Assembly (NCBI RefSeq): GCF_018977255.1
Contig: NW_024704743.1
Location: forward strand, 7,752,001-7,816,000
Direction of reading: 5' to 3'
Source of the DNA: Callorhinchus milii
Taxonomy: Eukaryota
Length of the DNA: 64,000 nucleotides
In this document: piece after piece, positions 2,313-32,326 of the stretch
How the letters are laid out: every line of letters begins with the position of its first letter
Position numbering within the stretch: position 1 is the stretch's first letter
Program-made: the position numbers and the translations under genes
The notes under the pieces: model-generated
Told to the model about the DNA's origin: nothing
Seen by the model: the letters and a program-made list of their open reading frames with translations, nothing else
The model's database searches: none

Positions 2313-2377
2313 GAGATGAAGAGAAGTTGGATGAAAGAGCAAAAATGAGCGTGTCTGCAAAGAGGTCACTTTTCCGT
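2313..2377 (+). CDS. SVIL: SVIL exon (65 nt, phase 1-0) DEEKLDERAKMSVSAKRSLFR
   Basis: cttctgcag acceptor, cgt|gtacgt donor, conserved supervillin peptide. Confidence 0.92.
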
Positions 2378-11590: not shown

Positions 11591-11840
11591 ACTACAAGCA
11601 TCTGCCCAGTACGCTATGGGAGAACAGAAGGCGAGTGATGCCAAAGAATTGACAGAACAGGGTCAGCCTGAAGAACCAGACATCTCAACGCTGAGTCTGG
11701 CTGAAAAGATGGCCTTGTTCAATCGACTGGCGCAACCTGTCACCAAAGTAATAACTGCAAGGAATAGAAGTAGCACCAGGCAGAGACGGTCAAATGCACG
11801 ATATCAGACCCAACCGATTACACTGGGAGAGGTTGAGCAG
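11591..11840 (+). CDS. SVIL: SVIL exon (250 nt, phase 2-0) LQASAQ...[15 protein letters not shown]...[15 protein letters not shown]
   Basis: ttttcccag acceptor, cag|gtgcgt donor, within ORF 11487-11852. Confidence 0.93.
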
Positions 11841-13976: not shown

Positions 13977-14574
13977 GTGCAGTACGGAAATGATATGATA
14001 AAGCCGCTGTCTCAATCCGTGGTCAAGTCGCTAACCAGTCAAGATGCTACGGTTTCTACAGGCTATGCTGGCGACCTGCACCTCACTACTTCTTTAGTTG
14101 ATGAGGGTAGTTTACATATCAGCCACGTGCCAGCAGAAAAGTCAGGCCTAGCTTTCCACAGTTCACTTGCTGGTGCCGATCTTCCAAGTAAGAGTGTGCT
14201 TAGCCAAGACCTGGTGCATTCATCGCAAGAAAAGTCATCTGCATACAGAGAAGCAATAAAAGAAGGTGCTGAGAGGGACAGTAATGATGATGAGGTAAAA
14301 GGGTTTGTGAGACACAGCAACAGCACCATTCATAGTTGTAGCCTTATAGGAGCTGAACCCCAGCAACTCATGAGCATAGGTGAGAAGAATGTGGATAAAG
14401 GACCTGGAGTTGGAGACGTGCTCAGTCCAGAAACCTTTCCAATGGCCTCTGAAGTGAGCTGCTTCAGGTCCCAAAACGTGTACGAGAAGGTTGAAATGAA
14501 AGGAATCGAAGAAAGAAGCTTTGATGAAACAGTGGACATGGAGCATGTTGTGAAAAACAAAACCACTCTCACTG
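13977..14574 (+). CDS. SVIL: SVIL large exon (598 nt, phase 0-1) VQYGNDMIKPLSQ...YAGDL...KTTLT
   Basis: ttccag acceptor, ctg|gtaagc donor, open frame within ORF 13920-14624. Confidence 0.88.
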
Positions 14575-16146
14575 GTAAGCTGCTGGACTCTATTCAATTT
14601 TCTCTATTAGAAATTCTATCATAAGAGCTTGGTGTGTTGAGTTGTAGAGCAATTCATGTCCAATTAGAGGGTTCTGAGTTCACGTTCCAAGGACATCCGT
14701 TCTGAACTTGATTCCATTATGCAAGTGCTTTTTGTGGTTTAGAATAATTGATGGCGACCTGAGTGCATTTTCATTTGGGATGGGAGGGGATGGCGAGGAA
14801 CAGAACTGTCCTGACCTACTTGAATTGCAGTTTGTTGGCTGGTCACGAAAACTATTTTTGCCATCTATTTGAAAAACCCACATTCTCCTGACCTCCAGGT
14901 TTGTGTAAGGATCCGGATAATCTACGTGGACAGGAGTAAACCTTAGACCATTTGGGAGTGCTTCCAAATTAACCCCAAACTAGTATTGTTATGTTATGAT
15001 AACCCTCGCATTTGATATAGCGTCTTTCATGTCAGGAGGACACCTCAGGATTCACTGTAAAGTAGTGAATGTGTATTTTGTAGGCAAACACAGCAGTCAC
15101 CGCACCAAAATTTCACACAAACAGCCATGAAATGAAAACGAAGCCTGGGAGACGATTCAGATCAGGAACTTTGTGCGTAGGTTAAACTTGGAAATTCTTT
15201 TTAAGACCACCCACTTTTTTAACAGACAGGAAATGATGCTTGAAAGTGTTGGTCATTGACGAGATGTTGTGTAAGAATGTTAAGTGCTCCAGGACAATAC
15301 CCTGCCGGGGGGGGCATTATATAAATGCAAGTTGTTGCGGTTGTTGTAAGCACCTCTAAGTGAAACGCAGAATATCTTGCAAAATTAAGTGCTTCAAAAA
15401 CATGAATTTGATAGCTTTGTGGCCGTTTCTTCACTGCCTAATCAAAGTCATAGGACCACAATCTATTTGCTAAGGAAAAAATCTACCTCATTAACAATGC
15501 TTATTGTCACCGCTCTGTTTCCTCCACCCCACTTCTCCTTCTCCTCTCCCTTCCCAATAATAAATTATAATAATCCTTGCATTTGATGTCGTGACTTATC
15601 ACGTCTTTGAGACGTTGCAAAGCACTTCACAGAATATACTGTAAAGTGAATTGATTGACTGTACATTTTGAATGAAACATAATAGAGTTGTTATTTAAAT
15701 GCAAGTTGCAATTGTTAATGCTTTGTGCCTTGAACATTGAGTGCTCCCACAATCAGACCGTGGAGACCAAAGTTCTCCATCTGTGACGATTGACTCGCTG
15801 TGGTTAGCTAGCTCACTGAGCTGTGTGGAAAATGAGACCAAGTGGCTGTAAGACAGCTGCTGTCAAAGTGGTGCAGCCTCCTTCCCTCCCTCCCCCCTCC
15901 CTCCCCTAAAATGGATAAATGCCAACACAGAACAAATTAGCTTGTTTAGACGTCAGTTTAGTTTGTAATGGATTTGGCAGAGATCACTTTTTTTTTCTTT
16001 TAATCAGTGAACCACTATGAGCATAAACATTTACTCTGAAAAACTCTCAGCTAAGCAGCTGCTGTCTCTATACCTAGAGCGGGAGTGAGAAGCAGTGAAA
16101 TATTCACTTAGAAGAACGAGCGAGTCTTTGGTTTTACTGGTTTTAG

Positions 16147-16186
16147 AATTTAAGAACACAACAAAGATGAGTGTTTCAAAACTGAG
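16147..16186 (+). CDS. SVIL: Candidate alternative (mutually exclusive) SVIL exon, 40 nt, phase 1-2, EFKNTTKMSVSKLR
   Basis: ttttactggttttag acceptor, ag|gtaaat donor; same phases and donor as the next exon; no transcript evidence. Confidence 0.45.
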
Positions 16187-16311
16187 GTAAATTTTGGAAT
16201 CTGATCAGTCTCTGTCAACCTGGCAACGTGCTGCTACAAGAATATGGGGAACATGTTGGCACAGTTTTTATGATGATGAGAGCTAACGCTGTCCTGCTGT
16301 TATTGCGTTAG

Positions 16312-16522
16312 AACGAGTGGAGCGGACTGCTGAACTGAAGGAAGCAACTGCATCACAGACCAACATTGTGACACCTTCCAGACATTCATCGGATAAGCAG
16401 TCGACTACCCAACCAGAAAATAAGGTGTCTTGTGATAAGTCAAAACTGGATGAAAAACCTGAACATAACAAAGAAGTCAGCGATTTGACTACTGCTTCGA
16501 AAGCAATGTCTATTAAAGAAAG
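16312..16522 (+). CDS. SVIL: SVIL exon (211 nt, phase 1-2) ERVERTAELK...TASKAMSIKER
   Basis: ctaac branch-like motif + gttag acceptor, aag|gtaaat donor, conserved MSIKER. Confidence 0.88.
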
Positions 16523-17468
16523 GTAAATATGCAATAAGGCTTTTAACCTTTTAAATGGGTAATGTAGGTTACGAATTGCATTATGTTGCTGCCGTGGCAC
16601 AAGTTGCAAAACACTGCTAATCGCTTTTGCAATCTGCACAATATCGCTGAGCATTTGTGAAATTGGAACTACTGTATACATTGATGAAATATCTGTTGCA
16701 TTAGATTTATTTCTCTTGTTAAAAACTAAATCTTTGGCTTATTTTAGAAAATGCGTTCAAGAATCATATTGGGTAGCAAGTTCTGCTTTAACCTAATTCG
16801 GTTCGACTCCAGGAAGAAATATCTGCTTTGCACTTAAGTTTCATTTTAGAAATATCTCCTTTAAAAAATTCATTATTGAAGAATCATTAGACAACCTTAT
16901 TCTCTTCCCCCACCCCCCGCCCCCCCATTCATGCTTATAATAAGATCTCTTTTTATTTCAAAGGTGATTTTAAGAGATTCAAAACACTCTTACCAACAGC
17001 AATAAAGTTCACAATTTATGACTGTTTCACTATTGGCTATTACCTGCAGTGATCATGAGTTCTGTTAATTTGCATTTTGAAAGAACATTGTGAATCTGTA
17101 TTGGCTTTCCATGTAGTTAATAGAGCATTGGAAATGTTAGCAAATCTGTTTTGCAGATGTTGACAGTGGAATTCAGCACTGAAAAGGCTCAACTACTGTA
17201 GTAAATGTTTGTTTAAGATTTGAACTTTTTTTTCTAATTGCCTCAAGTTCATGGAAGCAGACACCGTTTCAGTGCAAGTTATTTCTAAAATTCTGGCCAT
17301 TTTCCAGTATTTACAATTATTTGCTGAATCTGTTCACTATATTTGGTAATTGATTTCTTCTGTCCATAATAGTCCTATGTTTATCTGTCCACACGCAGTC
17401 TTTTCATCCCAGTTGCTGAGTATAGTGCAACTCCATTATAACGTGCTTCATTAGAGCACTGGTGCATT

Positions 17469-17662
17469 CAACAACAACAACAACAAGATTCCATTTATTG
17501 AGCGCCTTTCACGTCGGGAGGACGTCCCAAGGCGCTGTACAGTTGGGTCAGGACCCGAGCAAGGGGGAAATGGTCAGGGTGAGGGGAGGGAAGGGAGGGA
17601 GCGAGGAGGGGGTAGAGAGTCGAGAGGGGAGCTGAAGGCACGGTCAAAGAGAAAGGTCTTGA
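17469..17662 (-). mobile_element. Young L2 LINE 3' tail with (TTG)n end
   Basis: near-identical inverted copy of 39703-39874. Confidence 0.8.
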
Positions 17663-19514
17663 TGGGGTTTGTCCCCCATTTGCTCTCGCAATTACCATAG
17701 TTGTCTGGCGTGCGCATGGGACCCAGGAAGGGAATATTTGTTTGGACACACAGTCACTCGACTTCACAGTAAATTCTATGGAGTGCTTTGAGATGTCCTT
17801 CTGATATGATATGAAAGGCTCTATACCAAATACAAGTATTATTAATTAACCGGAAGTGGCCATTTTGGCTTTCTGCCTGCTAACAAATGTCCAACCTACC
17901 GGCGACATCATTTCCTGTATTGCGCAGCAAATAAGGAGTGTTGTTGGCAACTACCTGATGGCCCAGAATTTGACCTTTTTTAAGCATGGGAGCCAACTGT
18001 ATGCATGTGCAGTGAAATAAACTATCACGGCCTCATTATAAAGTGGGTTGGGATTTTATGGGTCCCCAATTACCTTCTAATGAGGCTCCAGTGTTGTTCT
18101 CACACTTCTCAAGTCCAACTGAAATTAATGGTCACTGGAAATGTGTATTGAGGTTTTCAGAAATAAATATCTAGCTCCAACACCCGCTTTACATAACCAA
18201 TGCATTTAACGTTTTAACTGCACTGTAATGAGAGAATGTGGCTAGATTTATTAGGCAGTAGGAAAGTGGGTCAAGTCAGAGAACAGGGTGACTCGAAAGC
18301 TCTGAGAACCATTAGCCTGGCTTCCTGTTTTGCACAGACCTTGACCCAGTCGTAAATAAATCCCAGATTTTTACTTTCGGAAAAGAGTTGAAAGTCGGCC
18401 ACTAGCATTGCTGATCGATAGTGCCACCAGGGTTAATTTGTGGAAGTATAGTTTTACGTTTCAAATAAATGGTTGACATTTTAGCAGTTGTCAACCATAT
18501 GTATGCATGTGTGGGGCTTTGGGACATCCTCCCAACCTGAAAGATGCTATATGAATGTCAATTTGTATTATATTGTACTGTGAAGGTCTAAAAGAAGTTG
18601 ACTAAGTTTTTATTAACCAGGTTAGAAGTCAACTAGGTTTTCACGGTTTATGTAGATGATATATATTTTTTGTAAAAATATCTCTTGAGTTTTAGGGGGT
18701 GCTGCAGTCATTAGATTTTTCTTTAGTTTAGAAAAGAGCAAATATCAATCTGGCCACTCAGGCATCCAAGTTAATGGAGAGGAGCTCAAAAACATTAAAC
18801 TTGTTTTTCAATTAACAAAGGTGATGTGATTCAAATATTTGCAACTTGTGTATGAATAATGTTGCCATAAGCAGATGGTGGGTGGGGGAGGCTAACCCAT
18901 AGTGTTTGCAGTGTGTTATAATCGAAGTGTGATAGAAAGCAGTGAAATTGGAAAATAATAGTGTAGAATAGTCGTTTCTCCATAGAATAGTGGAGATGAT
19001 GAATCAGATCAGGCACACAACAAATGCAACTGACACTGCTGAATTAGCAGTCAAGATTGGGCATTGGAATGGCTTAGTTTTTGAGCCCTCGTATTCTTTG
19101 ACATGGCCTACTTTTGTGCTGCCTAATGAACCTTAATATATTAAACACCGTTCTTATTATAGTGCAGTCTAGAGATCAGGCTCAGCAGCAACAGTAGTGG
19201 GGCCAGCTTTAAGCCTAGCCATTGTGTGGGGGGTGGGAGGGGTACACATTCACATCCACACTCCGTCTTTCAGAATCAACAAGAAATTGCAATACATCTT
19301 AGCAAAGACATAAACTCTGGGTCTCATAAATATCACAATCTTTCCCCCTTTGTTTCATTTTCCCCCCAATGTGATATCTGTCTGCTATTGTCAAGTGCTT
19401 TGGGACATCCTCCCGAAATGAAAGGTATTATATAATTGTAAATTGTATTGTTTTGATCATTTAGGACCTACATGTTAAGTCACTAGTGTGCCTTACATAT
19501 GTAACTCTTTACAG

Positions 19515-19647
19515 GATGGCTTTATTAAAGAGAAGTGGCGAAGAGGACTGGAGAAACCGTTTTAATAAAAAGCAGGACAGTGCCAAACTGACCTTGACCA
19601 GCCACTGCAGTCTGTTTCAGGAAACTGAACAAACTTACATTAAAAAG
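19515..19647 (+). CDS. SVIL: SVIL exon (133 nt, phase 2-0) MALLKRSGEEDWRNRFNKKQD...QTYIKK
   Basis: tttacag acceptor, aag|gtaaag donor, conserved peptide. Confidence 0.93.
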
Positions 19648-22593: not shown

Positions 22594-22641
22594 GAAGAAG
22601 GAGAGTTTACTGATGACATCTCTATGTCTAATCAGCTCTGG
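22594..22641 (+). CDS. SVIL: SVIL cassette exon (48 nt, phase 0-0) EEGEFTDDISMSNQLW
   Basis: cttgtag acceptor, tgg|gtaaga donor, frame-preserving; resembles a variable SVIL segment (EEG...LW) recalled from other vertebrates. Confidence 0.72.
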
Positions 22642-27610: not shown

Positions 27611-27682
27611 GAACCCGTTTATTCTTCCACTTACTCTCCTGCTCTTTCTGCCGCCCATACATGTCACCACTTTGTGCACCAG
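27611..27682 (+). CDS. SVIL: SVIL cassette exon (72 nt, phase 0-0) EPVYSSTYSPALSAAHTCHHFVHQ
   Basis: actaac branch + ctgtag acceptor, cag|gtgagc donor; resembles EPVYASTYSP of other vertebrate SVIL isoforms. Confidence 0.8.
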
Positions 27683-29139: not shown

Positions 29140-29208
29140 GTCGCTTCTGCTAATGCCAGGGAAACAAGTCCTCAGCTCTATGATGAACGTCATCCCTGGA
29201 GATGGAAG
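29140..29208 (+). CDS. SVIL: SVIL cassette exon (69 nt, phase 0-0) VASANARETSPQLYDERHPWRWK
   Basis: very long pyrimidine tract + aag acceptor, aag|gtgaaa donor, frame-preserving. Confidence 0.6.
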
Positions 29209-32181: not shown

Positions 32182-32326
32182 AGGATGGCGGACAATGACG
32201 CACGCATGACAATAGAAGAGAGGAAACAACTGATTACTAAACGGGAAGAGGCCTGGAAGATTAAGGGCAGAGGAGCTGCCAATGACTCCACTCAGTTTTC
32301 TGTAATTGGAAGGATGGTAAAGAAAG
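32182..32326 (+). CDS. SVIL: SVIL exon (145 nt, phase 0-1) [48 protein letters not shown]
   Basis: ccag acceptor, aag|gtcagt donor, conserved peptide. Confidence 0.94.

Follow-up and report, generated by a model that had tools for sequence, protein, structure and literature searches.

The 64,000-nt stretch of DNA analysed here (the window) belongs to svila, the gene for supervillin a of Callorhinchus milii. Translated, positions 19516-19647 match supervillin a isoform X10 (XP_042187888.1) at 100% identity, exact matching with 16 C. milii isoform records places 29 svila exons in the window, and the precomputed matches of the svila protein to PF00626 and PF02209 correspond to gelsolin and headpiece domains, so the exons fit supervillin a. 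Three annotated exons frame the region of interest, all on the plus strand: the exon at 13977-14574 (phase 0 in, phase 1 out), which matches the C. milii isoforms exactly, a 211-nt exon at 16312-16522 that ends in MSIKE(R), and the exon at 19515-19647, which starts with MALLKRSGEEDW (MALL) and gives the second half of a helix motif. The acceptor of the 211-nt exon (16292-16311) is the weakest of the 29, with 1.5 bits in a leave-one-out comparison, and is preceded by a textbook-like branch-point-like CTAAC at 16283-16287 (plus strand). Elsewhere in the gene, three short annotated frame-preserving exons (22594-22641, 27611-27682, and 29140-29208) are missing from isoform X10.

The intron 14575-16311, situated where the last part of the protein's disordered N-terminal half is coded, contains a candidate for an exon missing from the annotation or for the 3' portion of a first exon. 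This candidate lies at 16147-16186 on the plus strand, is single copy in the genome, and encodes FKNTTKMSVSKL followed by a split Arg codon. The original prediction had described it as a 40-nt segment between ttttag and gtaaat, 125 nt (16187-16311) ahead of the 211-nt exon, and both its coordinates and its flanks proved correct. Like the 211-nt exon, the segment enters in phase 1 and leaves in phase 2, starts with AA after an ag acceptor, and ends in AG before gtaaat. The predicted frame logic also held: exon 13977-14574 can be joined through either segment to exon 19515 in a frame open to the end of the window, giving 1190 amino acids with the 211-nt exon and 1133 with the candidate, a form 57 amino acids shorter, and inclusion of both breaks the frame, with a stop after 219 amino acids. 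When both are skipped, a stop follows after 203 amino acids. An ATG at 16167-16169 (plus strand), with A at -3, was found where predicted and opens the repeat motif described below; an in-frame TGA precedes it at 16086-16088 on the same strand, with no further ATG between the two, and joining this ATG to exon 19515 leaves the frame open for 927 amino acids within the window.

Splice sites were scored with matrices built from svila's own exons. The possible acceptor of the candidate, a T-rich tract with AG at 16127-16146 (plus strand), scores 6.6 bits, and the phase 2 donor gtaaat at 16187-16192 (plus strand) scores 7.2 bits; both values lie inside the range of real svila sites, the donor in the middle of it. 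The 22-nt AG-free zone of the acceptor contains no branch-like site, the nearest being at -41, while 22 of the 29 real acceptors have one. About 58 kb of intron contain two frame-compatible, stop-free pseudo-exons at the candidate's own scores (the candidate included), a count that rises to 6 at thresholds of 5.5 and 6.0 bits and to 25 at 5 and 5 bits. By themselves, the splice signals are therefore not more than chance would give against the pseudo-exon background. Among 1525 background donors, only 71 have an in-phase, stop-free acceptor of at least 6.6 bits, and 155 have one when the threshold is 5 bits.

The candidate had been proposed to be a duplicate of the 211-nt exon, given the similar ends of the two peptides (TTKMSVSKLR and ASKAMSIKER). 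This part of the original prediction was not borne out. The peptide likeness is at chance level: of 1600 background donors (candidate included), 228 attain its BLOSUM score of 13, and at the DNA level 881 of 2422 do as well as the candidate. Since neither comparison exceeds chance and the DNA of the two exons gives no sign of homology, we reject an origin by duplication from the 211-nt exon. The true parallel between the two segments is that each ends in the first half of a helix of the same kind.

Supervillin carries short helical repeats along its length, among them KVSELRKLF, one beginning with SVAKLRS, the MSIKER type, TIEERKQLI, and others; the MSIKER repeat itself is split by the exon junction 16522/19515. 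The end of the candidate peptide, TKMSVSKLR, resembles two of these repeats, TRVSVAKLR and AKMSVSAKR. The former, the second repeat of the protein, is located in C. milii about 300 nt to the left of the window (G000:C2:7751697), reads TRVSVSKLR in Scyliorhinus, and is kept from chimaera to birds; the latter, the third repeat, is encoded by the annotated exon 2313-2375 (plus strand), used here for comparison only. The MSIKER type was left out of a profile that covers the other five repeat types and accepts either register; on it, the candidate obtains 18.9 bits. Only one of 4737 background donors reaches this value, and that one belongs to svila's own coding repeat at 2364; the next-best background donor reaches 11.0 bits. 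When the TRVSVAKLR type was also removed from the profile, the candidate scored 13.5 bits and was exceeded by the donor at 2364 alone.

Broader comparisons gave similar, less sharp results. When the last nine residues could match anywhere in a 2327-amino-acid isoform, 5 of 1522 donors attained the candidate's score of 31, and when the last 13 were used, 11 of 1232 donors were as good, the candidate being counted in both cases; adding the first four residues of exon 19515 (18 of 1232 donors) made the match no sharper. These tests were devised after the likeness had been noticed, and the donor consensus by itself accounts for the final Arg, yet the margin is still large. A degenerate pattern of motif plus donor, likewise chosen post hoc, has two matches in the 0.99-Gb genome, one of which is the candidate; the second is unrelated, as is the single metagenome match of the motif pattern (64% GC), which has no relation to supervillin. 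At the DNA level, the candidate is identical to the two related repeats at 16 of 27 and 18 of 27 nucleotides, with mostly different synonymous positions, indicating that it is no recent copy of a repeat and pointing to an old origin. The peptide likeness to the repeats thus appears to lie well beyond chance, and the predicted coding exon with a donor joining 19515 gains support, which comes from the repeat match and not from the likeness to MSIKER.

The supervillin repeat that the candidate matches is the actin-filament motif (SFM) entered for human SVIL at residues 594-602 (the corresponding entry of PMC13364712, Supplementary Table 3). The candidate would supply positions P1 to P5 (V, S, K, L, R) and exon 19515 (MALL) positions P6 to P9. 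Five of the nine positions of the human entry are identical in this joined peptide, which shares Val at P1, Leu at P4, Arg at P5, a hydrophobic residue at P8, and Leu at P9, and both anchors of the motif, P1 (V/I/L) and P4 (L), are present. The joined peptide differs from the human motif in being assembled across a splice junction and at a new N-terminus, and in having Leu in place of Phe at P8 and no Glu at P9. Leu occurs at P8 in several of the SFMs listed (for example CASKIN1, MYO18A, and NAV2) and at P9 in the SVIL entry (PMC13364712). Because the joined peptide has L-L at P8/P9 and not the consensus F-E, binding of actin filaments by this helix remains a prediction. The same exon 19515 completes the annotated MSIKER helix one residue out of register. 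Only the junction with 19515 completes the candidate's motif in register; joined to 16312, the candidate gives a peptide of 13 amino acids, and the 211-nt exon would therefore be bypassed if the peptide is under selection. We also counted six or more SFM-like helical repeats in supervillin, one of which is listed for SVIL in the table of the SFM paper; their sites in C. milii include 2313-2375, 11591-11840, 16312-16522/19515, and 32182-32326 of the window, and G000:C2:7751697.

Within 300 nt upstream of the candidate, motif scanning revealed a CArG box, a CRE-like site, two E-boxes, and a C-rich tract. The E-boxes (CAGCTG) are at 15854-15859 and 16056-16061, the positions originally predicted, the first belonging to the first of two identical 10-mers. 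A C-rich tract on the plus strand (15877-15904), which we take to be Sp/KLF-like, adjoins a perfect CArG box, CC(A/T)6GG, at 15905-15914, a predicted SRF site and one of four such boxes in the window and of 20 in 264 kb. The CRE-like heptamer GACGTCA at 15949-15955 is one of two in the window and of seven in 264 kb. The combination of E-box, Sp1, and CArG sites is a signature of muscle promoters. Among 5272 overlapping 400-nt windows of the 264 kb, the cluster was equalled by 67 when nine motifs were counted and by 56 when six muscle-type motifs were counted, placing it in the top 1% or so for a motif set picked after looking at the sequence. The motif scan found no TATA box or CpG island upstream of the candidate, and no RBFOX or QKI motifs within 15901-16800. 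An SRF-bound CArG box is described for mouse Svil in the Svil passage of PMC5289827; it lies in intron 2, and we rejected it as an orthologue of the site at 15905 on that ground. The scan also showed two 400-nt windows 20 kb apart (G000:C2:7626301 and 7646651) that share motif counts, each with two CArG boxes 260 nt apart, possibly reflecting a local duplication or repeat, and a stretch at C2:7572701 that carries 17 CAGCTG.

We then turn to transcripts and proteins. Among 335 vertebrate proteins compared, 228 could be anchored downstream; the MSIKER type precedes the anchor in 208, something else in 20, and the candidate type in none. Forty-six further representatives gave no candidate-type N-terminus and were, on inspection, mostly unspliced read-throughs. 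All 16 C. milii records examined keep the MSIKER-type exon, the 11 RefSeq isoforms X1-X11 all retain the 211-nt exon and none uses the candidate, and none of the shark and ray isoforms examined carries it; of the cluster to which these RefSeq isoforms belong, 15 of 25 members were covered, and of a ray cluster 15 of 29. RNA evidence consisted of assembled contigs from four (X5-X8) of 14 runs, whose tissues are not given; none of the 14 is recorded as RNA, 10 were guessed to be, and the comparison leaves aside X1-X4, the best-covering runs among those guessed, together with X9-X14. Contigs join 14574 to 16312, skipping the candidate, in two of the four runs (X6 and X8), and join 16522 to 19515 in X6, X7, and X8. 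The joints listed for the contigs of X5-X8 include none at 16147 or 16186, but contigs show presence and not absence, as rare forms drop from them; likewise, the bin 15964-16187 is not covered by these contigs, which by itself says nothing on expression. One contig from run X8 differs by single bases at 14129, 14184, and 14417, probably allelic differences.

Other observations concern neighbouring junctions and short proteins. In some shark isoforms (Carcharodon P0009, P0010, P0293, P0295, P0296, and P0298, and Stegostoma P0303), a short extra piece is found between the MSIKE and MALL exons, and the next intron therefore hosts alternative exons in other species. In P0123-P0125, UniRef models from C. 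milii, an apparent read-through of the intron before 19515 replaces the MSIKER exon, likely through annotation error. 'Supervillin-like' proteins of about 1100 amino acids from rays, teleosts, and C. milii were considered as natural N-truncated parallels and rejected. Their clusters contain longer members (1845, 1496, and 2139-2689 amino acids), and the length filter used to collect them favours fragments. The C. milii paralogue (G000:C23:10201826-10218942; XP_042199216.1, 1115 amino acids) starts mid-gene, and the first Met of this RefSeq model most likely belongs to the counterpart of the 211-nt exon; the paralogue's N-terminal exons are present in the genome at C23 10201826-10205572, and the locus contains a long tandem-repeat stretch rich in Pro, Gln, and Ala at about 10206500-10207210. 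Short chondrichthyan svila proteins of 386 to 1231 amino acids were not found, and the open-access literature yielded no report of an internal-promoter or MSIKER-skipping supervillin.

The candidate is probably a real, unannotated exon that is currently used, either as a first or hybrid exon or as an internal one. Our preferred reading, to which we assign a probability of about 0.45, is that it forms the 3' coding end of an internal first exon, or of a hybrid exon, that gives rise to an N-truncated supervillin of about 1100 amino acids. The cluster of CArG, E-box, and CRE-like motifs would drive transcription from a start near 16.0-16.1 kb, presumably with muscle-type expression, translation would begin at the ATG at 16167, and the donor at 16186 would be spliced to 19515, passing over the 211-nt exon. 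The N-terminus that binds myosin II would be missing from the product, of perhaps 1095 to 1158 amino acids, as would most of the disordered actin-binding half; the central and gelsolin/headpiece half would be retained, and the protein would open with the rebuilt helix, in which V-x-x-L-R from the candidate and P6-P9 from 19515 replace the MSIKER-type helix. In the hybrid variant, the candidate may be used as an internal exon as well, which would reconcile the evidence for the two uses.

An internal first exon had been offered in the original prediction as the alternative to an exclusive pair. It now fits slightly better than an internal exon because of the motif cluster upstream and the placement of the ATG at the start of the motif. 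We prefer a first or hybrid exon over purely internal use because internal starts are, in our judgement, commoner than exclusive pairs of unequal length, and because annotation would miss internal starts more easily. Our preferred reading has weak points. None of the proteins and contigs compared uses the candidate, an acceptor only 125 nt downstream would have to be skipped, and the upstream motifs, which come with neither TATA box nor CpG island, may simply make up an enhancer within the intron. The joined motif has L-L and not F-E at P8/P9, and the synonymous differences imply an old origin, yet the exon is absent from the shark and ray isoforms examined. Moreover, the Thr-Lys preceding the Met fits the repeat, and an in-phase acceptor exists of a kind that few background donors have; both favour an internal exon. 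The hybrid first-internal exons described in the sections consulted of 10.1101/2021.05.27.446076 resemble the candidate in combining a usable acceptor with nearby signs of a start in a long multi-exon gene. They differ in being defined there by junction reads, while the candidate is known from sequence alone and would also bypass the next annotated exon.

The foremost alternative, which we regard as unlikely, is the internal, mutually exclusive exon that the original prediction favoured, in which the joints 14574 to 16147 and 16186 to 19515 would yield a full-length supervillin 57 amino acids shorter and with a swapped helix. Equal phases, the frame being kept by either exon alone and lost with both, the infrequent in-phase acceptor, the residues before the Met, and a competing acceptor at 16312 that is the gene's weakest all speak for it. 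Mutually exclusive exons can arise from tandem duplication, and the pair shares with such exons its adjacency, its equal phase, and the frame shift on double inclusion; unlike them, the two exons (40 and 211 nt) have no homology and a five-fold gap in length. The retention of the MSIKER-type exon in the 16 C. milii records and the 208 anchored proteins, with none carrying the candidate, and the missing branch-like site in the candidate's AG-free zone also count against this alternative. Steric exclusion operates below about 50 nt from donor to branch point; here, the distance from the candidate's donor to the branch-like site of the 211-nt exon is about 100 nt and therefore gives no steric exclusion, and we found no convincing complementary pair of the docking/selector type. 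Of the proposed exclusive pair, the phases and the frame logic therefore stand, and homology and a steric or pairing mechanism do not; exclusivity would then depend on nonsense-mediated decay of the frameshifted transcripts, those with both exons and those with neither, a mechanism that could still operate.

We consider it more unlikely still that the candidate is a chance intronic pseudo-exon, picked out for its M-S-V start and its strong donor. Frame-compatible pseudo-exons are common at the looser thresholds (6 to 25), the resemblance to MSIKER does not exceed chance, the repeat match was noticed post hoc, and, with the terminal Arg dictated by the donor consensus, the signal rests on about nine residues. 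Against this, no non-coding donor among the 4737 reaches the candidate's profile score, and chance would also require separate coincidences at one spot, those of the acceptor (about 5%) and of the motif cluster (about 1%). Least probable of these is a relic, an old helical-repeat exon hardly or no longer used beside an intronic muscle enhancer, which would account for the repeat match together with the absence from all annotations, but the amino acids match while the synonymous sites differ, and the frame, the ATG, and the donor are all intact, features that one would expect neutral decay to have eroded.

The mammalian gene offers a frame for these forms. The supervillins SV1-SV5 (SV2 being archvillin) are described as products of alternative splicing of 35 coding exons that share their N-terminus and vary within the disordered N-terminal half (PMC6192639, PMC7447519); they belong to the same gene family, and the descriptions given there include no mid-gene start and no loss of the MSIKER exon, unlike the candidate form. 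Myosin II binding is assigned to residues 99-153 and three actin-binding regions to residues 171-830, and engineered constructs that lack residues 1-170 have a dominant-negative effect on cytokinesis, according to the domain descriptions in PMC3842989. A form that starts mid-gene would thus be without the myosin II site. Common supervillin antibodies target residues 1-340, as stated in the antibody passages of PMC6192639. SVIL-201 and SVIL-203 are given as the main heart transcripts in the relevant parts of 10.64898/2026.07.01.735949, a study that found no truncated protein in human iPSC cardiomyocytes; the sections available of PMC4944918 and PMC13215552 contain nothing on the candidate exon.

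An internal promoter, a hybrid exon, and a mutually exclusive exon are all mechanisms of known kinds, and if the exon is confined to chimaeras, its recognition would be an annotation gain of modest weight. The boldest extension, which we hold to be improbable, is that the supervillin gene of jawed vertebrates contains, midway along its length, an unnoticed promoter driven by SRF and bHLH factors, giving an N-truncated form of about 120 kDa whose actin helix is rebuilt by a tiny first exon. The gelsolin-like half would then, if this is true, reach actin in the absence of the N-terminus that activates myosin II. If mammals kept such an internal-start form, it would be missed by N-terminal antibodies and spared by early SVIL stop variants, and conservation would bear on the reading of truncating SVIL variants in myopathy and hypertrophic cardiomyopathy, as these are presented in the SVIL variant passages of PMC7447519 and 10.64898/2026.07.01.735949. 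Such a form, if conserved, would also be a neat example of a short actin-binding motif swapped through exon choice.
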